Below the pieces are notes generated by a model, which saw nothing but the letters and a program-made list of their open reading frames with translations, made no database searches and had not been told where the DNA came from. The position numbers and the translations under genes are program-made. DNA of 55,702 nucleotides, filler included, from Jimgerdemannia flammicorona (lineage: Eukaryota), in assembly GCA_003990765.1 (NCBI GenBank). It is 2 parts of 2 records of this genome, joined end to end, with 100 filler letters (N's around TTAATTAATTAA, not from the genome) between each part and the next. Parts side by side here need not be neighbours in the genome. Positions count along the whole stretch, not along the records: positions 27,903 to 55,702 come from RBNJ01000601.1; 1 more part is not named here. One strand, 5' to 3'. Position 1 is the first letter of the stretch, and the number at the start of each line of letters is the position of its first letter. Positions 24,046 through 50,029 of this stretch are shown piece after piece.

Positions 24046-27000
24046 ATGAATGGTACAACTACTATTTTCTCTTTGAATGTGAATGGGTTGAGGGGACCTG
24101 GGCAGCGTAAGAACATTTTTTCTTGGCTCAAGGGATTGGAGGCTGATATCTTCTTACTACAGGATGTTCAATGTGAGGATGAGGATGATTGCTTAGAGTG
24201 GACTAGGGAATGGGGTGGAGCTACTGCCTGGTTTGGTAAAGTGGCGATTCTGGTGAGGAAGGGGAGAGGCAACTTGGAGGGAATCAGAAACTGGGGTGAT
24301 CGCTTGGTATGGGGAGATTGGCAGCGGCCAGGGTGGGAGTCAGTGAGAGTTGGCTCCTGCTACTGCCCTGCAGTTAGGGGTGAGAGGATTGCATGGATTG
24401 AGGAGCTGCTGGAGGAGGGTATTCTCTTGGAGGAAGGAGTCGATGTTCTCGGGGGGGACTTTAATATGGTTCGGGATCAGCATCTGGACAGAACTGATGG
24501 GGGGAGGAGTGCAGGGGGGAGAAGTGGAGGTCTGGATACATGGGAGAAGGTGGAGAGGTTGAGCTCCTTAGGGGATATGGGCAGAATGTGTTGGGCAACA
24601 ACTGGGTCTACACACATTGGGTGAATGGCTTAGGTACAAGGATTGATTGGATTCTGACGGTAGAGTATTGGGGTTCTGATGTTTGGAAGATGTTGGTGGT
24701 AGAGTGGTGCCCTTGGTCTGATCACTGGGGAATATTTGGAAAGGGGCAGTTTGGGGGGAGTGGAGATGGACCCGGACATTGGTGCCTTAACTCCTCCCTG
24801 CTGGCTGAGAAGGAGTTGTGGGACTCATGGGAGGTGGACATTCAGGTGAAGGTTCTTGCCTGGAGGCATGAGGGTTTGTCTGTTGGTGTCCATTGGATAA
24901 GATTGAAAGAGGCAGTGAGAGTATATTGGGGGGGAGCAGGTAGAGATGTTGGGAGGTGGAGCAGGTAGAGATGCTGGGAGGTGGAGGAGGGAGCACACAA
25001 GGTGTGCTTCCAGCAGGTTGAGAAAACTGCAAATGGATTGGGTGGATTTGCTTACTGCGGATGGAGTGGAGGATTGGAGGGTAGAGCAGGCTAAATTGGA
25101 GATAGTGGAACTGCAACAGGTCTTGTGAGAGGAGGAGGAGACCCATATGCGTGGAATGGCTGCTAGGCTAAGGTGGCAGGGGCTTGAGGAGGGTGAGTGG
25201 CCAACTAGGTACTTATCAAGACTCCTAAAAGCCAGGAGGGTGCGACATTGGTGGGATGGGATCTTGGATGCTGATGGGGATATGGTGCATGGCATGCAAC
25301 GAATCCTGGGGGTTTTAAAGAGGAGATGGCAGGGTTTGTGGAGTGAGAGGGAAGGGGGTGCCGATGGGGTGATGATTGCTGATACACTAGGGGAGTGGGA
25401 GTCACCGCAAGTAGCTGGACTGGATGACTTGATCTTACCGATGCGAGGGGAGGAGATCCAGAGTGTCCTTGCAGCAACTAAGCTTGGAACAGCACCTGGG
25501 GAGGATGGGTTGCCTTGGGACTTCTGGAAGAGGATGGTAAAGGTCCCTGGTATTTTGGGGGAGATGACTGTGCTCTGTGATCATGTTCTTCAGAGCAGTG
25601 AGTGGGTTGGAGAGCAGGACCTTGGGCTGGTTGCCCTATTGTATAAAGACAAAGAGAGGAGGGAAGACTGGAAGAACTGGAGGCCGATCATGCTTCTGGA
25701 TATGGACAGGAAGATAGTGACTAAGGTGATAGTCGCAAGGCTGCAGAAAGTTGCCCAACAGGTTCTGGGAGAGGAGCAGCAGAGCTTTGTTGGGGGCAGA
25801 CTTATAAGAGATGGTACTGCATGGGTGCATGGGGTCATTGAAGGTGCCCAGGCTTGTGGACTGGATGGAAGGTTGGTCTTTTTGGACCAGGAGAAGGCCT
25901 ATGACCGTGTATGGTGGGTTTGGCTGGGCAAGGTGTTGGATCAGATAGGTGTTCCCCCAAGATTTCGGACATCTATATTGAATCTGCTAGAGAGCAGTCG
26001 GGCGGGACTGATGTGTAATGGTCACCGAGGTTTGGCATTCTCCTTGGGTAGAGGAGTTCCTCAGGGGGACCCACTGTCCCCTATACTCTATGCCCTTTCG
26101 TTGGAGCCATTGATGGATAAGATTCATAGGAAGGTGGTGGGGCTCTCTATTTATGGTATAGTGTAGAAGGTGGGAGCCTTTGCAGATGACATGGTGGTTG
26201 GACTTGGGTCTGTGGCAGATGTCGAGGCACTTAGGGAGACAGTGGAATGGTATAAGGCTCACTCGGGGGCAAAGCTCAACTGGCATAAGTGTGAGATGAT
26301 GGTGCTTAGTAATGGGCTAGTGGGTGGGGATGTCATTGGAACAATTGTCTCTACTGGTGAGGCAGTACAGTATCTGGGCATCTTTCTTTCTGTATATGGT
26401 TCTGTCTTACTGTGGGTGTAGTGGGAGAACAGGGTGACCATATGGGGGGAGGCCCTTCGGAGTTGGGGAGGCTGACATATTTCTCTGGCAGGGCAGGTGA
26501 TGGTTCTGAACATATACTGGTTCTCCAAGCTGTGGTACGTGGCCTATCACCTTGATTTCCTAGCTTGGGTGGTGAAGAGGCTGATGAAGATGGCCAGAGA
26601 TTGGATCTGGGCAGGCAGGAGGTCTCAGATAGGTTGGGATACTCTTGCAACGCTGGTGGTCAGGGGAGGTCTGGGCCTTGTGGACTTCCCTAAGAGGCTG
26701 CACTGCTTGCGAGCCTGGTGGTTGAAGAGAGCTGCAGAATTGCAGGGAGGGGGTTGGGTGCCACTGTTGAGAAAGGTGTGGGTGATGAGGACATCTCCTC
26801 GAGGGTCCTCCGGGGATCTGCTCTCTTTGGTGAGGCTGAATGGAACTCAGTGGTTGCGGTTTAAGGGTTTTTGGTGGGGGGTGGTAGATGGATCACACCG
26901 CATTGGCCTGCACTGGCAAGGCAATGAGGGGGAGGTGGATTGGGGACCCGATATGTGGCAATGGGATAGACTGCTCCTGGGGGGTACTCCACTTGATACA

Positions 27001-27729
27001 TTTAATTTTGGGGATGAAGTGGAGTGTCAGTAGTATCTTGGACAGGATCTTTGGCCCAGTGGCTGGCAGGCGGCAGGGATCGGCGAGGAGTGGGACTGGG
27101 CAGGTATCTGGTCTTGGAGTGCTGAGGTGCGGAGGTGGCTTCCTCCCAAGTTCTGGGTGGTATGGTGGCGAATGCTGTGGAGGAATGTTATGTTAAACTT
27201 TCGCACTGGGTATCTGGTGGATGGTGGCCGTTATGATTGTGAGGAGTGTTATAATGTAGGGCAGGCAGGGGGTATTGTGCAGACACCAGAACATTGGCTG
27301 GGGGAGTGTGAGGTCTTGGGAGACTTTTGGGTAGAAATAGGGGATAGATTAGATGTAAGGAGGAGGCTGGCAGGTGTGGGAGGCCACTGGGAGGACTTGA
27401 GGTCTCAGCTAGTGGGCGGAGTTGGGGACAGCTGGCTTACTGTAGGGTGGGTATTGGCTGCGTGGGTGGGACTAGCAGGACATTGGCTTTTTGTATTTGA
27501 GGAGGGACAGTAGATGGGGCTAGGGGAGAAGATTTCCAGGTGGGAGGAGCTGTTGGGAGATCTGTTGACTGGATGGTGAGTGGGTTGGGGCCCTCAGGGT
27601 GGGCAATGTCACAGCTTGGTGGCAAGGATCTGTGTGCAGAGTGGAGGGAGGGTGGAGATTGTATTAGACAAAGTGGTCTTTCATCGGGAAGGGGTAGGGG
27701 TGGGGGGCCCTCCTAGAGGGATCGGATAG
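24046..27729 (+). pseudogene. LINE ORF2: APE endonuclease, reverse transcriptase, C-terminal CCHC; frameshifted with stops
   Basis: Endonuclease SLNVNGL, LLQD, GGDFN, RIDW, SDH. RT APGEDGL, NWRPIMLL, FLDQEKAYDRV, GVPQGDPLSP, FADD. C-terminal CEEC..PEHWLGEC; ends PPRGIG*. Confidence 0.93.
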
Positions 27730-27802
27730 GTGGAGAGATAACTGTATTTATAGAGATAGATGGACATAATAAAGGATGGGAGTCCAAGTGACTATAAAAA
27801 AA

Positions 27803-27902
27803 NNNNNNNNNNNNNNNNNNNNNNNNNNNNNNNNNNNNNNNNNNNNTTAATTAATTAANNNNNNNNNNNNNNNNNNNNNNNNNNNNNNNNNNNNNNNNNN
27901 NN
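27803..27902. other. Artificial contig spacer (N44-TTAATTAATTAA-N44)
   Basis: A symmetric 100-bp gap with a six-frame stop linker. This is an assembly/scaffolding artefact. Confidence 0.95.
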
Positions 27903-28460
27903 GTCAGCAAATCTGCCACCAACTCCTCCCATCTTGATAACTTTTCCCGGATCCCTATCTGTCACCCCTCCTCAAAAACAAAGAGCCAATGTCCAGCCAA
28001 CCCCACCCACACTGCCACAATCCAACCTACAGTAAGCCACTGATTGCCAACCCCTCCCACAAGTCTAGACTCCAGATCTTCCCAACGACCTCTCTCCCCA
28101 TCTGGTCTCCTCTCAACCCCAAGGCGGTCCCCTACAGCAATCCAAAAGTCACCCAGAACCTCACACTCCCCCAGCCAATGTTCAGGTATTTGCACAAAAC
28201 CCCCAACCTGCCCAACATTATAGCACTCCTCACAATCCAGCTGACCTCCAACCACCAGATGCCCAGCACGGAAGTTCAACATAACATTCCTCCGCAACAT
28301 CCGCCACCATACTACCCAGAACTTGGGAGGAAGCCACCGCCGGACCTCTGTACTCCAAGACCAGATTCTTGTCCAATCCCACCCTTCACCAATCCTCACC
28401 GCCTGCCAGCTACTCGGCCAAAGATCCTGGCCAATCCGCCGCTGACACTCCACCCCATCT
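27903..28460 (-). mobile_element. 5'-truncated copy of the same Tx1/L1 LINE (ORF2 C-terminus)
   Basis: ORF 27962-28453(-) is highly similar to the 27127-27513(+) region: RRWLPPKFWVVWWRML, CEECYNVGQ, GLAGHWLFVFEEG. Confidence 0.9.
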
Positions 28461-28679
28461 CCGTATCACATGGTCTTTCTCAATGGCTTCAGGTGGAGCA
28501 AGACATGGGCTTGGTGGATAGCATTCGTCAATGGTAGGGGGATGTGGTGGGACCTTTTACCCAATAGCACTCAGTTGGAACAGTCTTGGTTGAGATACAA
28601 ATAGACTGGGTGCTAGTGGTGGAGTACTGGGGTAATGTACTGGACACTGCTGAGGTGTGCTGGTGCTCTTAATCAGATC

Positions 28680-28717
<38 letters not shown>

Positions 28718-30655
28718 GGACCTAGGACACCTCATCAACCAGACTGAAATCCACACAGACCCCATGAAGATTGAGGCTGTTGCAGCCTACCCAAGACCCA
28801 GAACAACTACAGAAGTCCATGCCTTCCTTGGACTGGCCAGCTACTACAGAAGGTTCATCAAAGGATACTCTAATATTACAGCACCTATCTATGAGCTACT
28901 GAAGAAGGAGACCAAATTCGAATGGACCAAGGAATGCCAAGAAATCTTCAATGAACTCAAGACCAGGTTGACCCAAACACCTATCCTCAGAAGACCAGAT
29001 TGGAATCTAGAATTCATCCTGCAGACAGATGCAAGTGCTATAGGACTTGAAGCAGTTTCAGCTCAGAAGAAAGATGGACATGAATATGTCATCTCCTATG
29101 TAAGCCAAGGTACCTATAGAGTAGAACAGAACTATGAGTCATATAAGCTCAAATGCTTAACAGTAGTTTGGGCAGTAGACAAGTTCCACTACTACCTAGC
29201 CAGGAAATACTTCACTATTTAAACAGATTATTCTGCTCTTGTCTGACTATTCCACACTCTGAACCCCAAAGGAATATATGCCAGATGGATCTACAGGCTG
29301 TAAGAGTATGACTGTACTGTTAAGTACCACTCAGAAAGAACTAACACCAATGCTAATGCACTCTCAAGAACACTCCAAAACACCCCCATCAAGACTATTC
29401 AATATGAATAAGGAGCTATACTATGGATTAATCAGCTACCTTGGGCAGCAGAAGATGCCCAACCACCTCAAACCCTGGACAATCACTATCATCAACTGGA
29501 CTTGGAAACAATTTGAACTAGATAACACTATACTCAGAAAAGGAGGAAAGCTAGTAATATCTAAATACAAGAAGTATCAAGTAATGAAGGAAGTACATAA
29601 GCAAGGATATCTAAGAGGAATCAATATATACAATAAGGTAAGAAGAACTATATGGTGGTCCAAGATAGAAGAAGATCTGTGCCAATTTGTCAAAGAGTAT
29701 GACAAGTACCAAAAACAGAAATAAGATCAGTAAGATCAGATACCTGGGTCATCAAGAATTGAGCCTATCTCCTTCCACTACATCACAATGAATATTATTG
29801 GGCCACTACCAGTAATATTATCAGGAAACCACTATATTATAGTTATTGCAGACCTCTTCACCAAATGGATAGAGACAGAAGCATTACAAGAAGCCAATGC
29901 CCTCTCTATAGCCAACTTCCTGCACTAAGAAATCAGCTGCTACTATAAGACACCAAAACAAATCACAACAGACTGTGGCACAGAATTTGTCAATGGATTC
30001 CATGAGATAATATATCAGAAATACAAGATCCAGCACATCAAGACCACTGCATACTACCCTCAAGGAAATAGACAGATAGAGAGAACCAACAAGACCCTCA
30101 AGAACATTCTGGTGAAGATCACAGAGACATATGAGAATTGGGATAGCTATCTCCCAACTGCCCTCTCTATCCTATGAGACATACAGTCACAGAGTACACA
30201 CTTTACCCCAAGAGAACTGCTCTTCAGAGAAGAAGATTCTGATAGAACCTCAGCTACAAATCTAGACCTATCTTGGAGATAGGTTGATGCAGAAATCTGG
30301 AGGCTACACCAAATCAGGAAGAAGGCTGAAGATTATATTATCAAGTCACAAGTACTGATAAGAAAGAATGTGGAAAAGAATTACAAGACCCTAGAACTCA
30401 TTCAAATCAGAGAAAAGGTCCTATTGTATCAAAATATAGTAGAAGCCTCATGGTCATGAAAACTGGAGCCCAAATGGGAAGAACCCTTCTATGTGCAAGA
30501 TATCAAGGGAACTACCTTCTGGCTTAGAAAAATCTCAGGGACCATACTGCCTACTATGGTATATAGGAACAGACTCAAGAAGTACCACAAACCTATATAA
30601 GAGAAGCAAAATATGATGACTGCCCATGAGGTTCTAGTCTGCAAATCATAACAGC

Positions 30656-32010
30656 ATGTCCCATAACCAACAAGCTATCTGTCTGGACCATTCTCTAAGA
30701 GATATAGCACCAGTAACTACTCATCTGTGAGACTTTCAAAGCCAGAGGAGTTTGAACCATCAACTGATTGATCAAGATCAGAATCAGGCCCTTGCTCTAT
30801 ATGAAGGGAGTGACTCTTCACCATTATGCCAAAATATATAGAGAAGATGCTAGCCCATAAATACCACTTTTCGACCCCTTGCCAGAGGTTATGGGATCAT
30901 CAAATTTTTCAAGACTGAACCAATGAATAAGGATACTTGAGAAGATCCCTATTCAGAAGGAAGATATAATGGTGACCCCAGAATGATGACATCAGCACAG
31001 GAGACAGTCTTTCCTTACAAGCTATCAGATTGAAGTACAAGAAGATCATATGACATATGAGATGAGCAATGATGACCAATTTTGAGTCATTGTGACCACG
31101 GTACAAGCATCCTGAGGAATATAAAAGAAGGATCAAGGAACTGCAGTAATAGCAACCAACAAGACCCACCAATTCCAAAATAGCTCAAAGACTCACTACA
31201 AATGAAATGCCTGCTGTCTGCCAAATCTCAAGATCAAGAAACCACCAAGGTATCTCAGTCAAAGAAAGGATGTTCCAAGACATCAGAAGAGCCATGAGGA
31301 CCTACTCAAGAAGGACTCCTAGTGTCAACCTGGGTACCAGTGACTCTTATCATTATATTCTCTACTGCTGTGAAATGGAAACAAGGATCACCATTGCTAC
31401 CAAATGCCTTCAAATGTAGTAGAAGTACAAAATAGAAAACCTCCTCTGCTGAGAGTTCCTATAGGCCAGCACTCAAGAGCTACAAGATGCCACTCCTATG
31501 GATATATGCAAAATGAGGATAGCTAAGAAGATCCATCAAATCTTCAGGCATGTACTATAGTCAATCCCCAACTTAAAGTATGTTAGAGTCTCAGATTTCA
31601 GAGATCTATCATCTTGCCATATCAATACACTAGAAGCCAGGGTGGCTACAGAAGCTCAGTCCACTATTACCCTCAATAGTGATGAAGTAGAAGACTTCTG
31701 GCATCTTATCCTCCAGGACAACCCAGACCAATTCCTGCAAGGATTGATCTCAGTATTCCAAGGCCCAAGTATCCAGATTAGACCTCCCCAAGACCCCACA
31801 TTTGTTCCCTATTTTGTGGAAGAGAACCTCATAGACTGGAGAGCTCCAGACCTCCTTCCCACCACTGAATGTAATATCAAAGTACATGAGATGTGCAATC
31901 TACATGATGACAATGATGAGACAGATGAGATGTTCATAGACCTCATCTCCTTTGAAGACATCCTGATCTCTGATGATGAAGCCTCTATGGTCTTGAACAT
32001 TCTGCTCTAA
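30656..32010 (+). pseudogene. Accessory ORF3 downstream of integrase (about 450 codons, unknown function)
   Basis: ATG 4 nt after the pol stop. Reads through with TGA/TAG stops explicable as single transitions and one frameshift. Shares a 28-aa motif with ORF3 at 43786. Confidence 0.65.
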
Positions 32011-32018
32011 GTCTCTTA

Positions 32019-32146
32019 GTTACACTGAATAATGCCAGCACTAGCATTCTGAGGTAATGCAAAATTGTTCCAGTACTGGCATCTGATGTAATACTGAATA
32101 ATTCCAGCACTGGTATTCTGATGTGACACTGAATTATACCAGCATC
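32019..32146 (+). repeat. About four tandem 34-35 bp repeats in the presumed LTR U3
   Basis: Unit approximately ATGTAATACTGAATAATTCCAGCACTGGTATTCTG, containing palindromic CCAG(C/T)ACTGG. Confidence 0.75.
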
Positions 32147-32508
32147 CTGAACCTATACAACTATCAGTACCAACTCTGGAACTTAGCAGTTTTTTCTATC
32201 CTAGCATTTTATTTTAGTTATTGAAATTTATATTTAGCTTTATATCTTAGTAACCATTGAATTATATTTTGTATAAATACTCCTCTTATTTCCTCTGAAA
32301 TAAAGTCAGTTCTGGTTCACTTACATATACTTCTTTGCAAGTAATCTAAGAGATAACAAGACAGTTAAAGATAAGAAGTTTGAGGACTATAAGACCTTGG
32401 GAAGGCACTCCAATAAGAACTTGCTTATAACAAACTTGAGTTAGTCTAAGAGATACACCTTGAAGAAAATCTGGCATATTTGAAGGACTCAGTGACCACT
32501 ATGTAACA

Positions 32509-33386
32509 CTATATAGAGAGTTGGCTGATCTTGGGCATCAAATATCTGTAAAGGTTTTAGCAGATTCTTAATACTTGTAGCAGACTCTCTGAGCTTTAGC
32601 AAGCTTTTCAGTAAGTACAGTTCTGGTATAGAAGACTGTTTTTTGAGTAGTATTAAGATGGAAAGAGAGATGGCTATTATAGATAAGTGAAAGAATAATT
32701 ACAGTAGACCAGTCAGATATTAGATTAGTAATAGTTATTAAGACTAGTATAGATACTATATCAGTGGAGCCTTCTGATTAGTACAGAGAAGTTAAGTAGT
32801 AAGTATTACTCTTGATAGCTCTCAGTAATATATAAGCTTAGACTCTAGTTATTTGAGATCATTGAGAGAGCCTAAGACTACTTAGATTAGATATTTAAGG
32901 TATACTCAACTAGAACTAAGAGCTGATATGATGATATAACTGAGATCTATAGACTTGAGTAGTGGGATATTAGAGATCTCCTCTCACTTTATATATAAGT
33001 TCTTCACTTATCCTATTGAGGAGAATCAGATTCTACCTACTGTTTTATATCTTTTATAAGAGTTTTTCTTTACCTGTTTCTCTATTTGAGATTGTAGAAA
33101 CTTTGCTATCTGGCTCTGATATAGCCTTATACATACATTAGAGTTTTAGGTATATATATTTAGTTATTAGTATATGGTTATTTTTTCTCTAGTAGTAGAG
33201 AGAGTATGATATGCAGAATGAGGTATAGGTTTTTTATTCTTGCTATATCTGATATAGTAGAGCTATTAGACAATAGTAAGCTTAGATTTATAGAGGTATA
33301 GCATTCAGGAGAGAGGTGGGGTTTTGGTCTATATAGTCTAGATTTTCTTCTAATAAAAATCTATAGAACATAGAGTCATTTTTTTT
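32509..33386. repeat. Unclassified interspersed repeat (copy 2, inverted, heavily C>T/G>A mutated)
   Basis: Inverted homologue of 1-842. Cut on the left by the Gypsy LTR ending at 32508; ends in a T/A tract on the right. Confidence 0.75.
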
Positions 33387-33404
33387 AAAAATAAAAAAAT
33401 ACTA

Positions 33405-33574
33405 CTAAACTTATATAAAAACAACTTAGTATCTAGAGTGAATAAACCTCAGATCAAAGAAGTTTGAGCCTCATCCTAGTAGTCTGATAATGAGATCAGA
33501 TAGATACTATCTATGACTCTGAGAAGTTAAGAAAATTTACTATACTTCTCAGATTATATATTTACTATATTATA
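33405..33574 (+). repeat. 3' half of an LTR related to Gypsy family 2
   Basis: ATCTAGAGTGAATAAACCTCAGATCAAA is identical to 38756-38783. Terminus TTACTATATTATA resembles CCACTATATTATA at 44757-44769. Confidence 0.6.
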
Positions 33575-36313
33575 TCATCTTATATAATTATCTATCTATA
33601 TCTATCTCAATCATCTATCCATCTCAATTATTTATCTCATTTATTATTATTATTATTATTATTATAGTATTATAAAATTTATATAGTAATTTTCTTTTTA
33701 AAAAATATAAAACTGGTAGAAAATCTTATATATATAAATATTAAATTTATAGAGAGATATGAAAAAAGTTTAAATAAAAATTCTGACTCTGTCAAAGTTG
33801 TAGTAAATCAAGCCATATTACAGAGTTTTTTTTTAATATATTTTTTTCTCGTTATGTTCTATACCTTCGAAGTTTACTAAAATTTATTGAGGTTTATAGA
33901 TTTGCCGCACTGTACATGTGGCCAGCCAGACCAGCACAGTCTAACCAATACACTACAACACTAGCTTACATTGAAGTATTATAAGTATTATATATATATT
34001 TTTTAAGGATCAAAACGCTCAGTGATTCGCAGGTGGTCACATCCATCAACTCGTCAACCTCCTCGCTCGCAAGACCCTTCAATCCTGCGCCGAAAGACCG
34101 ACAAATATGTTTGAAGAGTTGTTTTTTTTGGGATTGAGAAACGAGGCGACGTTGCTCGTTTTGATTTTGCAAACCGAGTGGTCGAAAGATGGTAACATCC
34201 CAACAGGAAATCATTTGACTGTATACCTCCATCTCGGCAATTACACTGGTTGGACTCGGTAAACCGATCCTCATGCCACTATTGCATCAGGAATACACAA
34301 CGGGGCTCTCTTAATTTTCGTGGTGTATGATATAAGGTGACTACAAGTAATTAAACTTCCGCACTCCACCGCCTATACACCTTCCCTAAACACCCTGCTA
34401 CAGCGACGAACCGCCGAAATTGGTCCCTCTGCCAAGGTCATCCAGAGTATTACAGTGATACTGCTTTCCCATCGTTCTGTAGTCCATCGCCGTACTGCGG
34501 TCGTCTGCGGTCCATCGTCATTTTGCGATCTGCGGTTCATCATCGTTCTGTTTTCTGTGGTCTATAGTCATTCAGAAGTCCTCGGCGTTTTGTGGTCCAT
34601 CGTCGTCTTGCAGTTTATCGTCACCTACCATCGTTCGGCAGTTAACCATCGTTATGCGTCGAAAAACGGCCCTATCTGTATATACATCCTTGATTATTAA
34701 TATTAAGGCCCACGTAAGGGTGCCAAGTACCTATAGAAAGGCCTCGAGAGCCGCACGGCTTGCGTACAGTTCGTACGGGTTCTGAGGGCCCTGGCACAAT
34801 GCAAATCACGCCATTGTTCTACTGCCTTAATTTCGACGCGTCAAGCTTTACAACAGTACACACAGTACAGTATATACACAGCCCTATCCGTGAATCTTGT
34901 TACCATGACCTGTCAACTTCGTACAAGTCTTCTTGTGTAGCCGCCTACCTTGAGTTTCCGTATGCCCACTTGACTCGAATGTTTCTGTATACTGTGTTTC
35001 GAATCACCATATCGTCTCACAATGGTGTTATGCAACTTCTCGCTTTAGATTCTCTTATTCACATACTTTCGGATATTGCCATACAGGTAATTTCTTCGGA
35101 ACCTCTATTGATCGCCGCGACCGCAGTTATATTCGTCAGCTTATCGGGGAACCGAACGGATGCTGAGCCTCAAGTAATGGTAAATGACGTGTGTTGAGAG
35201 TTTTGCTAGGAGTTCGTGCGGTACAAGAAGAAAAAAAAAAAAATTCCGGCTTATAAGTGGACAATCCAGTCGTCGACATGCTCTAGAAACAGGTGGGGTG
35301 TCGGGGAAGGTGTCAGCTTGTTTGAGATCCTGATTTCGCTTTGTAGGATGGTAGGGTGACCGTGGCGGCAGTCGATGTCTTCATATATTAACTGTGGCTG
35401 TGGTGGCATGTATTGCGATGAGGTAACTAATAGGCAGACACAGGAGACGGAAGTGAATGAAGATACTAAATTCTACTACACGAAACACACTACCACCCTA
35501 AGAGTTATTTTTAAGTGATTTCAGAGATGAGCATCCTTAAAAAAATATATCGTATACTCTTCCCTATGTTGTTCAAGTGGTGATATGCATATGTCGCCTT
35601 TGCTTCGCTTTCAAAAATTTATTTCACCGCTTGACGTTCGTTGTGTTCGCTTTTAAACTTAATTTTGGCTATCATGATACGATCGATTGCGTTCCATGTC
35701 AAAAATCGGAGGCCTCGAATGGCACAGCGTGTTCAAAAGGAATTGCCCGTCAGAAATCCATTGTGACCCATAAGCGAATTGTGACCTATACGATTGCTGA
35801 CAATATCTCACAATACCCAGTCGTGACTTCCGAAAGCGATCTGAAAAGCGTCCATAGAAACCAACTTTATCGGCACACCCGCTGCAAGCTGACATCTACC
35901 AACGAGCATGTAGAGGCACGGTTCAGCACGTTAACGATATCCAAAACGTTAATACGCCGCTAGGGGGTGCGGTCTTGGATCCGTTTCATTCCATTTGGCC
36001 TATGATGACGTAAGTCTCGCTTTGGTAAGATAGCAGTGGGAATGAACTGGTAACCGAAATGATAAACAAAATCAATTCGGCGCCAAATACCGCTAGCGGC
36101 GCCATTAAAGAAGAAATATGCCTCATTCCAGTTAGACTCACCAACCGATTTATATAGGTTTATAGATTTGCGGCGTGGGAACGGGATGAGTCAGACGAAT
36201 TATTCCTAAGCCACAACAGACCGTTACCGATAACTACATTAACCCGACCCCTTGCCAATCAGAAAATATTTCAACAGTGAAGAGTTAACTAGCCCCACTT
36301 CATCTGCCACAAA

Positions 36314-38205
36314 ATGTACACAATCAACCCCGCAGAACAACCCATACTCACCGCGACGGCAATCGTCCTCCTCAGCTACCTCCTGATCCGCGCAACATCA
36401 AGTCGCAAGCCCAAGCTGGTCGTCCAGCCCTGGAACAACATACCCATTCTCAGCATCAAGGAAATGATTTATCCGCCCCAAGAGGATCCGTGGAAGAAGC
36501 TCGTCACCATCGCCCAGGACCCTCGAAATTACCCGCTCTGCGCCATCCCCGGCATCTTCAGCGGAGCGCCAAATCTGGTCGTCAATGATATTGACATGAT
36601 GAAGGAAGTATTTATCCAAGGACAATCCTATGGCCACGGCGAGCAAAAAATGGCGAGACCTAGAGACTTAATCACCATGAGCTATTACCTCTTTGGAGGA
36701 CGGCACATCGCCAACTCAGACGGTCACGTAAGTCATTTGGTTTCCGTTATGATTTCTGGAATTTTTAACAATGGTCCTTCATTTCACTGTCTAACAATTG
36801 ACGCTCCCCTCCACTGACTGCGCACAGGAATGGAAATGGCGTCGCCAGGCCTATTCGCCACCCTTCCAGCCGAGATTCCTCGTTCCAGCCTTGCTTCCTT
36901 ATGCCATCGAACGCGTCCAAAAACTCAACGAAGAGCTTGCCAAACTCGCAGCCACAGGAGAGGCCGCGGAGTTGGATAGCGAGATGAGCCACGTTGCGTT
37001 CGACATTATTTGCAAATATTGCTTCGGTTATGCTGATGAGGAACTCGACTTCCAAGACGTCAACGGCAGGGAAAACCTCAAGGTAGGAGAATCAACCTTC
37101 ATCTTTCGCATGCGTGACTTTTTTTTTCCTTTCAAGGGGATCCAGAACCATTCTGGCCTTTTAAAATTGGAAATGTCATGAACATATCTCGCAGAATGAA
37201 TTCGTCGCCCTCTTCGGGAGCATCGCCTCCGTCTACCCCCGCATTCCCATTATCAAGCACACTGAATGGGGTCAGCGTCACTACAAGCCCGCCCGCGAGC
37301 GCCTTGACGCCTTTATCAATCGCGCCATTAAAAAATCCCTCGCCCAGCCCGACCTCTTCCTCGACAGCAATACCGATAAACCACGTTTCCGCCCTCTAAT
37401 TCACGAGCTTGCCAAGAATACCAACTTCGAGGAGGGTACCGATCATAGCCTCGGCAGGGAGATCCTTGCCACAATCTTTGCGGGACATGACACTACCTCG
37501 CATACATCTTCGTTCGCACTCGGTGCTATCGCCCAGCATCCTGAGGTCCAGCAGCGCCTTTTTGAGGAGATCAGGGGGCAGTTGGGACCTGACCCGATCG
37601 ATGTCGCTGCTTTGACAACTGAGTCGTTAGGAAGTATGAAGTATTTGACTGCAGTCATTAAAGAGGTCATGAGGATGTATCCGACCATCAATAACTCGTA
37701 TGTCGAGGCTCTAAAGGATACCACTTTAGGCGGAATGGCCGTCCCAGCTGGTACGTTATCCTAAACTCCCTCGCTCTTGCGCGTACAATGTCGTATTGAA
37801 CGTGACCTTGCAATCGCCAATCCCTTTCCTAACCATTTGCTACCTTATCACAATTCAGGAACCATCATACTCGCCAACTTCCGCGGCGCCCAGATGAACC
37901 CCAACCTCTTCCCGAACCCCGAAAAGTTTGACCCGACCCGTTGGCTCGAACACGCCGACGCCGACATCTTCCAGGATGTCGACCACATTGCGACCAGATC
38001 CTCCAAACCTGAGCTCGTCTTCGGCCTCGGTCCGCACGCCTGCCTCGGCCGTAATCTCGCCTGGCTCGAGCTTCGCATTTTGATCGCCGCAGTCGTGAAC
38101 AAGTTCAAGCTCAAGCTCAAGGAGGGAACCGCACTCGATACCTATACGTTTTTAACCATGTTTCCCAAGGATGGTGTGTGGGTTACGTTGAAGGAACGTG
38201 TTTAA
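36314..38205 (+). CDS. Cytochrome P450 (paralog A), intact, 523 aa; exons 36314-36727, 36828-37082, 37195-37750, 37859-38205
   Basis: GT-AG introns give an open 1572-nt CDS. N-terminal hydrophobic anchor, WKWRR (C helix), AGHDTT (I helix), KEVMR (ExxR), FDPTRW (PERF-like), heme motif FGLGPHACLG. Confidence 0.95.
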
Positions 38206-38475
38206 ACTGCCGGAGTCGGAGTCTTAAATGTCCTTGATGGTTGGGGTTGGGATAGATCTAAAATTGAGCTTCGACCAAGTTATAAACATTTCCTTTTCTC
38301 TCCAAAATGATTGTGGCATGCACACAACTCTTAAATAATGATTATTTAATTCCAATAAGTAGTTTATTCCCTAACTATTAGTTCTTGAATTTTTTTTTTT
38401 GTAAATAAATCACAAATGATATGTATATGCATTTTATAAAAGCACTACTATTTAGTACTCAATTGCTCTAACTGT

Positions 38476-38953
38476 TGTGATGGTTGATCTGAATTAGTAA
38501 TATGAATTAGAGGAATAGACATTTGATTATAGTATCTAAATCTGATTCCCAAATATAGCCTTGCAAAATAGCAGTCATTTCAGTAGTGTAGAAAACTTTA
38601 ACAACTGCTAAGATTCTGCAGATGTTGAAATATTTGCAATTATTGAAATCCTAGCAGATATTAAAAGATTTGATACTTGTAAAGAGTGACTTACAGAAAA
38701 TATAGTCATAACTTAGTCACTCTATAGCTGGTAAACTTGTATAAATATTCCTAATATCTAGAGTGAATAAACCTCAGATCAAAATAGTTTAAAGTAAAGT
38801 AAAAGCAAGAGAACTAGTAAGCCTGTAGGTAGATATACTTGAAACTCATCTACTCCTATATTCTGAGAACTCTGTAGAGTTAAAGAAGATTAAGTTTTTA
38901 AGATACATATAAAATCTGATATACTTATATAGTTATATATCTAATTATGCTAA
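38476..38953 (+). repeat. 5' LTR of Gypsy family 2 element
   Basis: Starts TGTGAT. Direct repeat of 44287-44769, differing mostly by transitions. Confidence 0.88.
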
Positions 38954-40689
38954 TACTATCTGAGACTAAGTAGCTAAAGTAATCTTTATGAAAGAAATTT
39001 ACCTAGAGATAGCCATGGCTATTTGCTTATTATTAGTAGTTCTGGACCTACTATAAAAGACCACCTATACTTAGTAATACTAAATAGCCAGACACTCATA
39101 AGACTATATAATAGAAAGAGTCATAAGAGTCAGAATTAAAGCACTTAAAGTAATTAGTATAATCTCTACCACAATACTTAATTGAAATACACTACAGTCA
39201 AAAGCTATAGAACAATAAAGAAATAATGACCCTATAGAGAAACTTGTTAAGAGATTTGCTAAAATAACTACCTATCTAAGAGAATGATAAAGAAAATCAG
39301 AGGAAGAAACTATTACTTAGTTCAGAAGTTTGCTGTTATCTCAGACAAGAAGAGAGATACCTGTTATACTTATAGAGAAAAAGACCACTACTCATATAAA
39401 TATATAAGTAAGATCAAACACAGGATCTAGCTAAATAATGTTACTCAAAATAAGGAATAGGCCAACACTATCATATTTGAGAAGATTAGATAATCTGATG
39501 AAGAAGAATAAGAGGTCAATCTTATATAGACTACTAAGAAAAATATCTATAAAGAACCCTATAATTAACTACTAGAGAGATTCAAAAAGAATCTAATAGA
39601 AAAATATATAGAGACTACTATAGAAAACTAAGCTAAAGAAATAGATCAAGATATAGAGTTGAAACAGACTGTTCAAGATATTATTTGAGAAACTACTCTA
39701 GCTAGTGAGAGAGAAAAAGAGAAGAAGCTTTATAAGACTAAGATCTTTAAGTATAATATCTTCTAGGATCTCAACTAACAAAAGATCAATGCAACCTTTG
39801 GCTAGCTGGCAGAAATCTATATTTAGATAGCAAATGAGATTTGAACTTGCTGAGATAATTAAAAATTAAGACTGAAAGATAACTGAAACCAATAATATTC
39901 AAAAAGACTCTAGAGAAGAAAGTAAAGATAATTACAAGACCTCTGCCTATATAATCTGTCAGATTGAAGATAGAGTCTTTAATGCCATCATTGATACTGG
40001 AGCAAAAAAATGCCTCTTTAGCAAAAGAAATGGCAGACCACTTAGGTTAGGAGGTTGAAAAAGTAATAAAATTGGTATTTGTTATAGTAGATAGTATAAG
40101 AACTATATTTCTGAGAAAGATCTAAGATATTTCTATCAAGTTTGGAGAAATAACTATTCCAGTAGATATAATTGTGACTAATACAACCAACTATAACATT
40201 CTTATTAGCAATCAATAGCATTATAAAGCTAGAGTAATAATTGACCTAAATACCTAAAAGTTATAGATCATCTACTATAGACAGAAGCTACAAATTTTCA
40301 TTAATATTAATAAAGAAGTTCTACTCAAAATAGAGAAATAAGAAAGTAAGCAAGAAGAATCTTAGATAATATCTATTTAGAAAAAAAAAAAAAAAAAAAA
40401 AATTTTAAAAAAAATTTATTAAAAAAAAAAAAAAAAAAAAAGATTGGATAGATGAGTAAAGAAGACTGATATAAGAAGATTACTGAAAGATATATATTAC
40501 AAAGAGTCTATTCTCATAGGATCAGAATATACTATATAGAGTATATCAATAATTACTACTAGTATACTATTAGAGTCAAGAAAATCTATTATCAAAAAAG
40601 AGAAAAGACTCTCAAAGAACAAAAAAGGACAAAAAAAGAGAAGAATGATAAATTATTAATCCTTCTGATGAATAGTAATAATAAAGAAG

Positions 40690-41107
40690 AAATTAAGATC
40701 AAGATTCAGAAGATCTACTCTAATATAGTTCTAATAAAAGATATATATATATCAGAGAATATAACTAAAATATATATCACTATAGTAGAGAAAACCATAC
40801 TTGAATCTCAAACAATCACCCTACTCACAACTGGTCTGAAGATAACTATTCCAAAAAACTATATTAAACTCACAAGACAAGAAGTAATCTGATCAGGAGC
40901 AATATCACTATTGAAGGAGAAGTCATTGATTCAGATCATATTAGAGAAGTACTACTCATTAGTAGAAATCACAATTCTACAATCTCATTTCTCATCAAGA
41001 AGAACTGATTGGTGCAGATTTTGATCTTTTCAGTCTTATAGCCAAAGATTAAAAAAATTAAGAAGTTGGAGGAAACAGACAGAGAAAAGAAAGAATTTAG
41101 ATTTATA
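40690..41107 (+). pseudogene. Retrotransposon-encoded dUTPase domain, between protease and RT, hypermutated
   Basis: TTGLKITIP, TRSNL (motif II), EGEVIDSDHIRE (motif III), LVQILI (IV). LEETDREKKEFRFI reverts to RGxxGFGST (motif V) using only G>A/C>T reversions (GAA<GGA, AGA<GGA, TTT<TCT, ATA<ACA). Confidence 0.82.
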
Positions 41108-43785
41108 GAAGAGGAGTTTTTATCAGTACTAAGATTACTAAGCTAGACTACAAGAAAGAGAAAACTATGAATAAGTATAGCTATACAATTAGAAATAAAT
41201 TCTCACTCAAGAAGATACTCTATGAATTCAAGGATATTCTAGCTATGAATTTCAAGGATATTAAGAAAAAGACCTCAAACTACTACTATGATATAGATAT
41301 AGGAGATATTAAACCAATTTATCAAAAAGTAAAGTTAATTCCATTAGTCTATTGAGAATGGCTCAGAGAAGAAATCAAGTAGATAGAAGAAACTAGTATT
41401 ATCAAAGAAATCAGTAGTCCTTAGAGTTCACTAGTTATACTAGCTCCAAAGAAAGAAAGCAAACCTGGAGAATTTGTCTTAAGACTCTGTTCCGATTACA
41501 AAAAGCTCAACCTGATTACTAAGAAAGATCACTAACTACTGCTACTCATTAGTAACATTCTTATAATCCTAGGAGATAAAGTGTAGTATTATAGTATTTT
41601 AGATCTATACTTAGAATTCTACCAAATTAGCCTTACAGAAGTAGTATGTAAAAAGTCAGTCTTTATTATCTCAGATAGAATCTATGTCTACTTACAAATA
41701 TTATTCAAAATATATAATATACCAGTAAGCTTCTAGTGAATGATAAATAAAATCTTCTACTATGATATAGAAAGATAGATAATGGTTTATATAGATGATA
41801 TAATTATTTACAGTAAGACATCAGAGAAGTATCTATAATACATCCAGCAGATAATAGAGAAGCTAAGGAAGTATAGCTTATACATCAAGCCTAAGAAGTA
41901 CAAATTTGTAGAAATTGAGATTTTTTATCTTGCTCACATTATCAATTAGAATAGAATATATACAGACTCTCTCAAGATTCAAGAGTAGCAGTATATCTAA
42001 GACCCACTATCATTACAGAAGCTCAAGTCTTTGTAAGACTTATCTTATACTATTATAGATTTATTAGAGAATTTTTCAATATTGTAGACCTAATCTATAA
42101 ACTCAATAAGAAGGACATTAAGTTTCAATAGACTGGTAGATAACAGAAAGTATTCAATGAGCTCAAGATCAGACTGATCTAAGTACTAATCTACAGAAGA
42201 CCAGATTGATCTCAGAAATTTATTCTATAGATAGATGTGAGTGTATAAGAACTAGGAGTATTTCTGACCCAGTAGAAAGACAAAGTAGAGTATATCATTA
42301 TATATCTCAGCTGAGAAACCCAAGGAGCTAAAAAGAAATATAAATCATACAAGTTAGAGTGCCTTGCAGTCATCTGAGCTATAGAAGAGTTCTACTACTA
42401 TCTTATTAGAAGATACTTCACTATTCAGATAGACTATTCAGTCCTTACTTAGCTACTGACCACTAGATAATCTAAAGAAATTTATATCAGATTAATTATG
42501 AAGTTACAAGCCTATAATATAACTATTATATACTGCTTCAAAAGAATAAATGCTAATATAGAAGCTCTTTTATAAATACTTTAAAGAACTTTCAATGCAT
42601 AAACCAACTATAAATAAGAAGCTCTATTATAGAATTACCACCTATCTGAGATAGTGAAAGATGCCCCAATATCCGGAAGAATAGATATAAATGATTATTA
42701 ACAGAACATAGAAACAATTCAAGACTGATAGAGAAATATTAAAAAAAGAAAAACTACTAGTTATATCTGAACAAAAGAAGAAGCAAGTAATGAAAACAGT
42801 ATATAAACTTAACTATTTAGAAGGAAAAAATATATATAATAAAGTGAGAAGAACAATGTGATAATTAGGAATGGAGAAAGATATCAGATGATTTATCAAA
42901 ACCTATAATAAATACTAGAAATAGAAATAAGATCAATAAAATCAGATTCTGAGATCAGTATATATATATATAACTAGTACTCTTTATATATCATATAATA
43001 GATATAATTGGCTCTCTACTCTCGAATTTGACTGATAACCAATATATTATTATTATTATAGATTTTTTTTACAAAATAAATAGAAGTAGAACTTCTCAAG
43101 AAAGCTAATATATAGTCAATTACCAATTTCTTCTATAAAGAAATTATCTATCAATTTAAGACCCCAATATAAATAACTATAGATAGAGGAATAGAATTTA
43201 TAAACCAGTTCTTTAAGGTTCTCTATAAGAAGTATAATTTGAACTGGAGTCTATTACTCTCAGAGAAATGAATAAGTAGAAAGAACTAATAAGACTCTCA
43301 AGAACATTATTGCTAAGATCTATAATAACTATAAAAATTGAGATTACTAGCTGCCAATAGTATTATCTGCTCTCTAGGATATTTGATTATAAAGTACCTA
43401 TTTTATCTCTTAAGAAATACTATATAGTAAAGAAAGTCCTCAAGAAATCTTATCATCTAATGAAGATACTATATGGAAATACATAGATAAAGTAATATGA
43501 AGACTATACCAAATTAGAAAAAAGGTCAATGATTATATAACTAAGATACAGACTCTATAATAGAATAATGCAGAAAAGATTTACAAGCTCTTGAAAATTA
43601 TCAAGATAAGAGAGAAAGTTCTAGTATATTAGAATATAGTAGAAGCCTCATAGTCTCAAAAACTAGAGCTCAAGTAGAAAGAATCTTATCTTATACAAGA
43701 TATAAAAGAAACTATCTTTTGGTTTAAAAACTATTAGATACAATTATCTCTATTACTATCTACTGAAACTAGCTCATAAAGTATT

Positions 43786-44190
43786 ATGACTAACTAATAA
43801 AGAAATGCTACAGCTCTTAAGATCACCAGTACTATATAATGAGCCATAGAAAGATAATAGTGTTTCACTAAGCCACCAACTATAGAGAAATTCTTTAACA
43901 GTATTCAGAGTATATGTAGTATAGATATACTTATAATAAAATTCACATTTCAAGGCCTACTAGAACTAGACCGAGTTCTGAAATACTTCAAGTTGAGATA
44001 GCTACTAAACTTAAAGTCAGAAATGAAAAAAGAAAATTGAATTAGAGAGTATCAGCTCTCTTATATACAGATTACCATTACTAAGAGAATATATAAGTTA
44101 TTTAAAGAGAATGAGCCAGCTCTAGCTCATTTCTGAGAAGTAGCTCTAGGAGACTTTAGATATATCAAGAGACAATATTGAGATATATAA
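43786..44190 (+). pseudogene. Accessory ORF3 downstream of integrase (at least 135 codons)
   Basis: ATG overlaps the end of pol; single frame with transition-type stops. Contains ITKRIYKLFKENEPALAHF*EVALGDFR, which aligns without gaps to ORF3 of the element at 28720. Confidence 0.6.
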
Positions 44191-44286
44191 TAATATAAAT
44201 TATACAATATAAGAAGATTTAACTGATTAAAGGTTGGGAGTTTGAATAAAATATTTCAGAGATAAATTATCTATTTAAGAGATAGT

Positions 44287-44769
44287 TGTGATAATTTATC
44301 TGAATTAGTAATATAAATCAGAAGAATAGATATTTAATTGTAGTACCTAAATCTGATTTCTAAATATAGTATAGCTTTGAAAAATAGTAGTTATTTCAGT
44401 AATATAGAAAACTTTAACAACTGCTAAGATTCTACAGATGTTAAAATATTTGTAATTATCAAAATTCTAGCAGAGGTTAAAAGATTTGATACTTGTAAAG
44501 AGTGACTTATAGAAAACATAGCTACATATAACTTAGTCACTCTATAGCTAGCAAATCTATATAAATATCTTTAGTATTTAGACTGAATAAACCTCAGATC
44601 AAAATTGTTTAAAGTAAAGAGAAAGTAAGAGAACTAGTAAGCCTGTAGATAGATATACTTCAAACTTACCACTTTTATATCCTGAGGACTTTGTAAAGTC
44701 AAAGAAGATTAAGTTTTCAAGATACAAAAATCTGATATACTTATATAGTTATATATCCACTATATTATA
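44287..44769 (+). repeat. 3' LTR of Gypsy family 2 element
   Basis: TGTGAT start after a purine-rich remnant. Ends CCACTATATTATA (cf. CCACTATGTAACA at 32508). Confidence 0.88.
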
Positions 44770-47075: not shown

Positions 47076-47360
47076 AATGCGCTTGGCGAATTGTCCCTCC
47101 CTTTCGATTTTTCCGTTCGGGCGTATCAACGGGCCCACTCTTTTTCACCCAGAATCCTTTGCATACCAATGAATTGAAACAGTTTCACAAAAATTAACCC
47201 AATTGCTGTCCCATTCCTCGACATGGGAAGTTCATTCCAAAGCCACAATAGATTATTCCTCATATATACCTATATTAATACTGCTGGACCCGACGCCTTG
47301 CCAAACTTCAGAAATCATAAACGGTGAAGAGCTAGCTAGTTATACACTATCACTTGCTAC
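46463..47360 (+). repeat. Upstream region duplicated with P450 paralogs B and D (counterpart 53136-53975)
   Basis: Colinear blocks such as GTGACGAGACGGTTGGT, ATAATGAATTGTGGA, CCGTAAGCGAAT and GCTTGGCGAATTGT occur in both. Confidence 0.85.
47029..47074. repeat. (CT)23 microsatellite upstream of P450 B
   Basis: Read directly. The counterpart upstream of paralog D (about 53764-53782) is much shorter. Confidence 0.95.
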
Positions 47361-49262
47361 ATGATGTACAAAATAAATCCCGCAGAAAAACCCATACTCA
47401 GCGCGATGGCAATCGTCCTCCTCAGCTACCTCTTGATCCGCGCAACAACAAGTCGCAAACCCAAGCTGGTCGTCCAGCCCTGGAACAACAGACCTATTCT
47501 CACCATCAAGGAAATGATTTACCCGCCCCAAGAGGATCCGTGGAAGAAGCTCGTCACTATCGGCCAGGACCCTCGCAATTACCCGCTCTGCGCCATCCCC
47601 AGCCTCTTCGGCGGAGAGCCAAATCTGGTCGTTAATGATGTCGACTTGATGAAGGAAGTCTTGATCCAAGGACAGTCCTATGGCCATGGCGAACAAAAAA
47701 TGGCGAGATCTAAAATTATAATCGACCTGAGTTACTACCTCTTTGGAGGATGGCACATCGGAAACTCAACCGGTCACGTAAGTCTTTTGGTTTCTGTTAT
47801 TTTTTGCCTTTGAGCTGGATTTCTGGAATTGTTAGCAATGTCCATTCATTTCACTATCTAACAGTTGACGCTCCCTCCACCAACTGCGCACAGGAATGGA
47901 AATGGCGTCGCCAGGCCTATTCGCCATCCTTCCAGCCGAGATTTCTCGTTCCAGCCTTGCTTCCTTATGCCATCGAACGCGTCAACAAACTCAACGAAGA
48001 GCTTGCCAAATTCGCAGCCGCAGGAGAGGCCGTGGAGTTGGATGGCAGGATGAGTGATGTTACGTTCGACATCATTTGCAAATACTGCTTCGGTTATGCC
48101 GATGAGGATCTCAATTTCCAAGACGTCAACGGCAGGGAAAGCCCCAAGGTAGAAAATCGATCTTCCTCTTTCGCATGCGTCACCTTTTTTCTTTCAGTGG
48201 GATTAAGAGCCATTTTGACCTTTTAAAATTGGAAATGGTATCAACGACCCTTGCAGAATGACTTCATCGCTCTCCTTAAAGGCGTCGCCTCCGTCTACCC
48301 CCGCATTCCCATAATCAAGCACACCGAATGGGGTCAGCGTGGCTACAAGCCTGCCCGCGAGCGCCTTGTCGCCTTTACCAATTGCGCCATTAAAAAATCC
48401 CTCGCCCAGCCCGACCTTTTCCTCGATAGCAATACCGACAAGCCACACTTCCGCCCTCTAGTTCACGAGCTTGCCAAGAATACCAACTTCGAGGAGGGCA
48501 CCGATCATAGCCTCGGCAGGGATATCCTTGCTATAATATTTGCGGGACATGACACTACCTCGCATACATCTTCGTTCGCATTCGGTGCTATCGCCCAGCA
48601 TCCTGAGGTCCAGCAGCGCCTTTATGAGGAGATCAGAGGTCAGTTAGGACCTAGCCCGATCGATCTCGCTGCTTTGACGACCGAGTCATTGGGAAGTATG
48701 AAGTATTTGACGGCAGTAATTAAGGAGGTCATGAGGATGTATCCGATCCTCAATTTCTCATTTACCGAGGCTCTCAAGGATACAACTTTAGGCGGAATGG
48801 CCGTTCCAGCTGGTACGTTATTCAAAACTTCTCGGCTCCCTTGCGCGTACAATATCGTATTGAACGTAATTTTGCAATCCCGTTCCTAATCATTTGCCAC
48901 CTTATCACACATCAGGAACCCTCATAGTAGCAAACTTCCGCGGCGTTCAAATGAACCCCAAAATCTTCCCGAACCCCGAAAAATTTGACCCGACCCGCTG
49001 GCTCGAAAATGCCGACACCAACACTTTCCAGGATGTCGACCACAATGCGACCAAATCCTCCAAACCTGAGCTCGTCTTCGGCCTTGGTCCGCACGCCTGC
49101 CTCGGCCGAAATCTTGCCTGGCTCGAGCTCCGTATCTTGATTGCCGCAGTCGTGAACAAGTTCGAACTCAAGCTTAAGGAGGGAACCACACTCGATACTT
49201 ACACATTTTTCACTATGCTACCCAAAGATGGCGTTTGGGTCACGTTGAAGGAACGTGTTTAA
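47361..49262 (+). CDS. Cytochrome P450 (paralog B), intact, 523-524 aa; exons 47361-47777, 47894-48148, 48257-48812, 48916-49262
   Basis: Same exon sizes (255, 556, 347 nt) and motifs as paralog A (AGHDTT, KEVMR, FGLGPHACLG). The spliced frame is open. Confidence 0.95.
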
Positions 49263-50029
49263 ACCGCTGGAGACAAAGTCTTAAATATCCTTGGTAGTAA
49301 GGGTTGGGATAGACCTAAATAGACTTCAGTTTCGACCAGGTAATATGTCCTTTCGAGCTTTTCCTTTTTGCTCAAACATGGTTATGGATAGAATGTAACA
49401 CTTAAATAATGATCACTTAATTCCGATTATTCAAACATTTTTTCTGTAAATAAACCACCTTTGCACATTTCCAAAACAAACTGTCATTCGGTACTCAATT
49501 GCTCCAACTGTGCGCCTATGCCAACCGTAAGCGATCTCGAATTTATTTTAAAGCCACGGATGGCAATCGATCATTGTAATCTCATATCGGATTAAAAAAA
49601 GCATGTTCTCGCTGTCGGTCAGTTGTAGCTTTTTCACCGTCCCAGGGATGGAAGATTATAAACCTACGCCCAAGTGACTACAGAAGCAGAGTTGGAGCTA
49701 CTGAGTCGGGAAATTGATCGTAGGACAACTATAAAAATGATAGCATTTACGAAATCGCTGTATCGTGGTATAATCTAGGCTACTCCACAATCGCCTGACA
49801 TAACCCCCGGAAAATGCAATCTAAAATCCCACAACAAAAATTACGTAATGGCGCTACACAGCCATCCGGGAATCTGCGCATTACAGGGATCAACAACCTG
49901 CGATTGTGCATACAGTATTTGGGCTGCCTTCCTTGACTAGTGGCCTTTCCGGCAAGGTAGTGCCATCACAGAGTTTCGCAAAGGTCGTCTCTGACTTGGT
50001 GATTCGTGCTATCTTTACAACGCGGACAA

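Follow-up and report, generated by a model that had tools for sequence, protein, structure and literature searches.

Introduction

[quoted passage not shown] Among retroviruses, foamy viruses carry the gene for Tas before the 3' LTR, with an internal promoter, and HTLV carries Tax, a regulatory gene next to the 3' LTR, with repeats in U3. The primary paper on brtn, an extra gene of fungal Gypsy elements, is reportedly that of Zhao et al. 2011. In this work we analysed 55,702 nucleotides (nt) of DNA from Jimgerdemannia flammicorona, called the window below (assembly GCA_003990765.1; two parts of two records joined with 100 filler letters, positions 27,903 to 55,702 coming from RBNJ01000601.1). 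Two Gypsy-type elements lie in the region of interest, element 1 (28716-32508) and element 2 (38474-44757), and element 1 harbors a decayed third open reading frame (ORF3) between pol and its 3' LTR. We estimate the probability at about 70% that element 1 is a copy of a Ty3/Gypsy lineage with a sense, non-env, orphan accessory gene that probably has its own promoter and could act as a nuclear regulator.

In the available part of the review PMC7264820, additional ORFs of plant LTR retrotransposons mostly occupy the region from pol to the 3' LTR, those reviewed in sense orientation are env-like, and Boty of fungi carries the antisense brtn. ORF3 resembles the sense class (aORF-3S: env of insect gypsy, env-like genes of plant Athila and Bagy2) in lying after pol and before the 3' LTR in the sense direction and in being conserved across lineages, as aORF-3S are across copies and related lineages (PMC7264820, same part). 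It differs from them in the absence of a signal peptide and a transmembrane helix, in its small size (267-342 amino acids, aa), in its strongly acidic character and in showing no likeness of sequence or fold. Unlike the env genes of this class, it has an apparent TATA box of its own and no sign of env-type, splice-dependent expression, and its host is probably a fungus and not a plant or an insect. Like ORF3, the brtn gene of Boty-like Gypsy elements in Botrytis and Sclerotinia is additional to gag-pol, sits after pol and before the 3' LTR and has no function assigned (available parts of PMC8365987 and PMC7264820). It is antisense to gag-pol, whereas ORF3 is sense; the two were compared by description. 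This antisense gene was the sole fungal example found in our literature search, and in the available parts of PMC3248453, PMC8365987 and PMC7264820 no sense ORF3 is described for a fungal Gypsy element, the first of these having no mention of ORF3 in that part.

The likeness of ORF3 to Tas and Tax is one of layout only. ORF3 is 3'-terminal before U3, a candidate internal promoter precedes it, tandem repeats stand at the start of U3, and the protein has a basic N-terminus and an acidic-hydrophobic C-terminus. It differs from both in having no sequence or fold homology to them and in belonging to a retrotransposon without env.

Results and Discussion

ORF3 and Its Relatives

Element 1 was annotated as follows.

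28716-30597, + strand: pol fragment truncated at its 5' side, with the end of reverse transcriptase (RT), RNase H and the integrase zinc and core parts; premature stops and a frame change
30598-30600, + strand: pol stop, TAA, from translation and sequence
30601-31206, + strand: spacer from the pol stop to ORF3, 606 nt, with no open frame and no Pfam match in any frame
31120-31129, + strand: TATAAAAGAA box, candidate internal promoter, 87 nt upstream of the ORF3 ATG
31207-32010, + strand: ORF3 pseudogene, 267 codons plus TAA, ending in LNILL, with five premature stops
32020-32508, + strand: 3' LTR, start placed to within about 15 nt, ending in AACA at 32508
32022-32144, + strand: tandem repeat at the LTR start (U3), 35-nt unit, 3.5 copies (TRF)
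32272-32279 and 32299-32304, + strand: TATAAATA and AATAAA of the LTR, aligned with like motifs of the element 2 LTR

To find homologues, positions 30601-32007 were read through with stops as X and compared by phmmer with 1.84 billion representatives. Four matches had E ≤0.001 (4e-105, 9e-42, 8e-37 and 1e-28, at 75, 42, 65 and 34% identity), all on query residues 217-469. A word-indexed search returned nine proteins with E ≤0.001 among 1858 candidates; together with P0002 they make up 10 clusters with 21 proteins in all, whose identity to the window copy spans 34-80%. All members are encoded on contigs in JGI/IMG or ENA, 540-4848 nt long, and carry either no name or the label "hypothetical protein". 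No match to the family pattern was observed in viral contigs, and a scan of metagenome contigs reduced 235 pattern stretches to one relative, L001.

The bounds of ORF3 were fixed with a 22-row alignment. An MPA or MPP start is common to five intact relatives and the window copy has MPA; full-length intact relatives have 271-342 aa, against 267 codons in the window. When a profile hidden Markov model (HMM) was built from the relatives without the window row, its only match in the window, read in all six frames, was 31249-32007, with 342 bits. Thus delimited, the sense ORF stands after the pol stop and before the 3' LTR, and some 10 nt separate its end from the LTR. A sequence-only reading of this DNA had let it begin at the pol stop; the real start is at 31207, 606 nt further on.

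The premature stops at codons 71, 72, 82, 86 and 118 are all TAG or TGA, and in each case a single transition would give a sense codon (CAG, TGG or CGA). Logan contigs of four runs (X1-X4; three soil metagenomes and one organism) were mapped on 28500-33500 at a likeness of at least 80%. At 31420 they read C and at 31452 G, which gives sense codons, in nearly all of the depth. Since contigs of all four runs carry the sense base at both positions, the stop damage is private to the window copy. The alignment and the profile indicate that ORF3 is a real, conserved gene of an orphan family, present here as a decayed copy.

The relative L001, a metagenome contig of 1535 nt, has an intact ORF of 291 codons with 40% aa identity to the window ORF3. 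Its flanks show no overall alignment with the window and share short motifs only. One of these is TATAAAAGAA, found 80 nt before the ATG of L001 and 87 nt before that of the window ORF3; a shared word of this length at a similar distance occurred in 9 of 1000 shuffles. At positions 1252-1270 of L001, a purine run of 10 nt directly adjoins the ORF3 stop and TG comes next, which is the textbook arrangement of a polypurine tract before an LTR; no clear tract of this kind precedes the proposed LTR start of element 1. About 120 nt further 3', L001 contains TACACTGAATAAT, the 13-mer core of the 35-nt unit of the element 1 LTR (0 of 300 shuffles).

Over the 246 codons aligned between the window and L001, premature-stop codons being dropped from the count, pN (the proportion of nonsynonymous differences) was 0.375 and pS (the synonymous proportion) was 0.777, a saturated value. 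Frames of 271-342 aa stay open among relatives at 34-55% identity. As pN is below pS and long frames remain open in diverged relatives, selection has acted on the ORF3 protein.

Linkage of ORF3 to Element 1

The pol of element 1 is recognizable in Pfam by RT_RNaseH_2 (E 4e-29), Integrase_H2C2 (E 5e-7) and rve (E 2e-7), in the order expected. Of the LTRs, the 3' one only is seen, placed by the alignment with the element 2 LTR, by a repeat boundary and by a sequence resembling a primer-binding site at 32508. The element 2 LTR is collinear with that of element 1 over nearly its whole length (38488-38927 versus 32048-32482), with a transition-tolerant score of 204 against 157 +/- 12.7 for shuffles, none of 100 reaching 204. 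Because of this alignment, and of TATAAATA and AATAAA at matching places, the start of the 3' LTR was set at about 32020. The number of 35-nt units varies between copies, since contig joints of X1 and X2 skip 71-80 nt.

In all four runs, summed contig depth was continuous over 28667-32507 and then dropped at 32508 (X1 from 2248 to 6, X2 from 148 to 2.8, X4 from 73 to 1.4, X3 from 28 to 0.3). The contigs therefore treat 28.7-32.5 kb as one repeat with a sharp end at 32508. Past this position, one contig each of X2 and X3 continues with ACT and then TGGTGCCC, a loose end that reads as a sequence like a primer-binding site (TGG...), as expected 3' of a 5' LTR. Contigs bridge the pol stop and the spacer (30373-30680, 30544-30790 and 30755-31099), and others bridge the ORF3 stop into the 35-nt repeats of the LTR with differing repeat numbers. 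ORF3 itself was covered by contigs in 4 of 4 runs, and 21 homologous proteins exist. Three lines of evidence, the LTR alignment, the continuous cover with its boundary and the bridging contigs, say that ORF3 is part of element 1. The analysis shows that element 1, truncated at its 5' side and mildly decayed, is a copy of a lineage of Ty3/Gypsy-type LTR retrotransposons and that the sense accessory gene between its pol and 3' LTR is conserved and under coding constraint.

Several points speak against this picture. Gag-pol, ORF3 and both LTRs are nowhere found together on one sequence, and the window copy has lost its 5' half; because the metagenome contigs are pieces of 150-350 nt, the linkage is drawn from tiling and from the sharp repeat boundary. 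There is no clear polypurine tract before the proposed LTR start of element 1. Fused pol-ORF3 proteins were not found in a search of 600-2000 aa, which is weak evidence. No integrase was found in the 375 nt of L001 upstream of its ATG, but the gap between pol and ORF3 in element 1 is 606 nt, so this observation is uninformative either way. Finally, depth over 31005-31839 (the spacer end and ORF3) was 2-3 times that of pol (28834-31004) in X1, X2 and X4, from which the ORF3 segment may also exist apart from pol. The step could stem from derivatives without pol that retained both ORF3 and the LTR, or be a contig-depth artefact; summed contig depths are unsuited to ranking. An LTR starting at about 31005-31100 and enclosing ORF3, which the depth step would suggest, was rejected, as the whole LTR of element 2 aligns to 32048-32482.

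The same step, in three of the four runs, would fit a reading in which ORF3 and its TATA box are a captured host gene or a separate small repeat riding as a passenger in the 3' region of element 1. The separate TATA box and the unlikeness of ORF3 to any retroelement protein in Pfam fit such an origin, and transduction-like capture has been described for additional ORFs (PMC7264820, available part). Against it, captured genes occur in one or few copies according to the same part of that source, several lineages maintain the ORF at 34-80% identity, and the search gave no cellular homologue: the four clusters matched among the 1.84 billion representatives all come from short contigs and are at most a "hypothetical protein". 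In L001 the ORF again stands just before a purine run, TG and the shared LTR 13-mer, and contigs run unbroken from the spacer into the segment (30755-31099). We therefore consider a passenger unlikely.

Properties and Possible Role of the ORF3 Protein

The sequence-only reading had described the ORF as non-env and free of a chromodomain, and this was confirmed. No transmembrane helix or signal peptide was found in six proteins of the family, so that the env-like combination of signal peptide and membrane anchor is absent from them; the highest Kyte-Doolittle mean over 19 residues among the six was 0.97, and the N-termini are hydrophilic. No Pfam env family was matched, and over 30599-32508 and 43789-44285, read in every frame, Pfam gave no chromodomain match up to E 1. 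More generally, no Pfam match fell below E 0.01 in the six frames of 30.6-32.5 kb or in the sense frames after pol of element 2, the best ones, all far under the cut-offs, being PHD_P300 (0.069), PatG_C (0.066) and ATG5_HBR (0.028; 4 of 22 members).

The family has a common layout: the N-terminus is basic and rich in Arg, the middle is mostly helical and contains strongly conserved blocks, and the long tail is acidic. In P0005, for example, the first 60 residues carry a net charge of +8 and are Arg-rich, and the rest sums to -29, of which the last 91 residues contribute -17. Short hydrophobic motifs of the acidic tail are kept in every lineage, namely ..F.[DN]L.. and, close to the end, LNF. 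AlphaFold2, run on the 22-row alignment, predicted mostly helices in the first 185 residues (mean predicted local distance difference test, pLDDT, 46.5). Foldseek gave no match to the PDB at E ≤0.001, which means little for a model with this pLDDT, and a profile against PDB sequences gave 0 matches at E up to 10. In the ESM Atlas the first match was at 0.83 and belonged to no named family, the model there having a pLDDT of 0.35. No homology to retroviral transactivators (Tas- or Tax-like) was detected in PDB sequences, in Pfam or, with the low-confidence model, by Foldseek.

We propose that ORF3 is probably transcribed from a TATA promoter of its own, the conserved TATAAAAGAA that precedes the ATG by about 80-87 nt, as a subgenomic mRNA of about 1.1-1.2 kb that would be polyadenylated through the signal of the 3' LTR. 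The protein would be a nuclear regulator of the element, most likely an LTR transactivator. Its basic N-terminus could serve in nuclear import or in nucleic-acid binding, and its acidic-hydrophobic tail could be an activation or recruitment module, perhaps acting on the variable 35-nt repeats at the LTR start, in a mode of action like that of complex-retrovirus transactivators. The role of nuclear regulator or LTR transactivator is offered tentatively, as a reading of charge and motif layout, and we regard it as the most likely of the roles considered but still less likely than not. A stronger form is rather unlikely: a probably fungal Gypsy lineage that is "complex" in the retroviral sense, whose small nuclear protein, with its Arg-rich N-terminus and activation-like acidic tail, is made from an internal TATA promoter and activates its own LTR through the variable 35-nt U3 repeats. 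Such a feed-forward circuit of the Tas/Tax type would have evolved separately from that of retroviruses, with a protein fold not yet seen. Two observations count against the functional proposal: because the structure model is poor, it is built only on the charge layout and on motifs recognized by eye, and among the listed runs that hold the stretch, none is on record as RNA.

A different role, in integration targeting or against silencing, for instance as a substitute for the integrase chromodomain, would suit the fact that the integrase ends about 45 residues past a GPY/F-like module with no chromodomain downstream in any frame. Repeats of the host are heavily decayed by transitions, and acidic tails that carry short motifs of hydrophobic residues typically act in protein docking, both of which would agree with such a factor. 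There is no direct evidence for it and no domain or fold match, and we hold it to be quite unlikely.

The sense, non-env, orphan ORF3, kept open across lineages at 34-40% identity and with an apparent promoter of its own, would be tractable for the study of accessory-protein roles such as transcription control, nuclear traffic, targeting or counter-silencing. The family alignment gives a profile that marks one Gypsy lineage in soil metagenomes and can be used in annotation.

Element 2 and the 28-Residue Block

The second Gypsy-type element has the following parts.

38474-38941, + strand: 5' LTR, 85.3% identical to 44285-44757 over 477 nt
38942-43797, + strand: internal region (gag-pol), GC about 27%, many stops
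43795-43797, + strand: pol stop, aligned with the pol end of element 1
43798-44284, + strand: stretch after pol, about 487 nt, with no ORF and no family match; it holds the block 44077-44160
44285-44757, + strand: 3' LTR, second member of the LTR pair

Element 2, which has long terminal direct repeats at both ends, is complete as an LTR element and shows decay of the transition type. Despite this decay, Pfam detects RVT_1 (E 6e-10) followed by RT_RNaseH (E 2e-19), and an integrase-like stretch aligns with that of element 1, which gives the pol order RT, RNase H, integrase. The pol regions of the two elements are 63.8% identical over 1822 nt (blastn), and the likeness stops at 30530/43730. Downstream of this point, the element 1 spacer and the element 2 stretch after pol are collinear without significance (11 of 100 shuffles).

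The sequence-only reading had seen, in both elements, a sense ORF starting at the pol stop and sharing a conserved block of 28 aa. The quoted 28-aa strings at 31519-31602 and 44077-44160 are indeed the letters of the sequence, but an open frame starts at neither pol stop. In element 1, the ATG at 30656 opens only 24 codons, and on the + strand of 30601-32010 the open stretches of at least 80 aa are 31153-31419 and 31561-32010 only. In element 2, 43786-44190 has stops in all three frames. The block has 8 identities in 28 positions, a BLOSUM62 score of 36 and one stop in each row. It coincides with the best ungapped segment between the two stretches after pol over all frame pairs (score 37), and a score of 37 was reached by 7 of 60 shuffles (mean 31.3, standard deviation 4.4).

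Other comparisons gave the same result. The family profile HMM scored 1.2 bits on the element 2 stretch in the frame of the block, with 14 of 200 shuffles higher. A position-specific ungapped test picked 44053-44160 (profile columns 76-111) with 13.7 bits, and 26 of 100 shuffles were equal or better; when every T or A was allowed as a former C or G, the number rose to 47 of 100. A local DNA alignment showed nothing at the block, and the HMM of ORF3 relatives, run on six frames of the window, found no ORF3 signal in element 2. As shuffles do as well in the segment, HMM and position-specific tests, the similarity between the elements is at chance level.

Element 2 has no room for ORF3, since only about 487 nt separate its pol stop from its 3' LTR. 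It is without ORF3 and represents a distinct but related Gypsy family, with LTRs that can be aligned to those of element 1. An accessory gene after integrase, conserved in protein and outside known families, was thus borne out for element 1 and not for element 2, which has neither the space nor a detectable homologue. The block led to a real gene despite an empty comparison because its element 1 side lies within the conserved N-terminal family motif AKK[IV]HQ[IV]FRHAPW.IPN..YV.V.D; a short protein match seen by eye between decayed copies can lead to a real gene for the wrong reason.

That a third ORF running from the pol stop is conserved in both elements, as a selected accessory factor shared by two divergent Gypsy families, is very improbable. 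In its favour, the block is as quoted, the family profile can be forced to align element 2 at columns 76-111 in the expected frame, and the elements are related in pol and LTR. Against it, shuffles equal or better these scores at the frequencies given, neither pol stop opens a frame, and the room up to the LTR is 1419 nt in element 1 (30601-32019) and about 487 nt in element 2. The block would lie 125 nt before the LTR in element 2 and 417 nt before it in element 1, and element 2's RT and RNase H can still be detected by Pfam despite decay.

Surroundings of the Two Elements

The window looks like eukaryotic DNA rich in repeats, probably from a fungus. It contains cytochrome P450 gene copies, a long interspersed nuclear element (LINE) that has endonuclease and RT domains, and transition-decayed stretches in which the GC content is 21-33%. 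No tRNA genes were found in it. The main neighbours are listed below.

22152-27033, + strand: LINE-like element, GC-rich with strong GC skew; Exo_endo_phos E 1e-9, RVT_1 E 7e-20
36242-38356, 47288-49427, 50040-51077 and 53946-55082: cytochrome P450 copies, a tandem family with 75-85% identity; Pfam p450 E 1e-28

The first ORF of the LINE-like element, of 595 aa, had no Pfam match. Element 2 is inserted, together with an AT-rich block, between two of the P450 copies.

Upstream of the element 1 pol there are a run of 33 T (28682-28714) and N gaps within 27803-27902. Inverted repeats with 68-77% identity (27010-27569 versus 27903-28462, and 18519-19263 versus 27040-27802) flank the two N gaps (27803-27846 and 27859-27902), just upstream of the truncation of element 1 and the T run, and may reflect a rearrangement or an assembly join.

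Directly 3' of the element 1 LTR, 32587-33344 matches positions 1-760 of the window in inverted orientation at 66-73%. The copy at 32.6-33.3 kb has a GC content of 31%, against 56% in 1-760, and nearly all differences are transitions towards A/T; element 1, which adjoins this repeat, is itself only mildly decayed. Further on, 33327-33361 is a 35-nt remnant resembling the element 2 stretch 43910-43944 after pol, with a score above all 100 shuffles, and 33406-33465 is a 60-nt remnant with 85% identity to the TATA/AATAAA region of the element 2 LTR. Together they are probably a collapsed old copy of the element 2 family.

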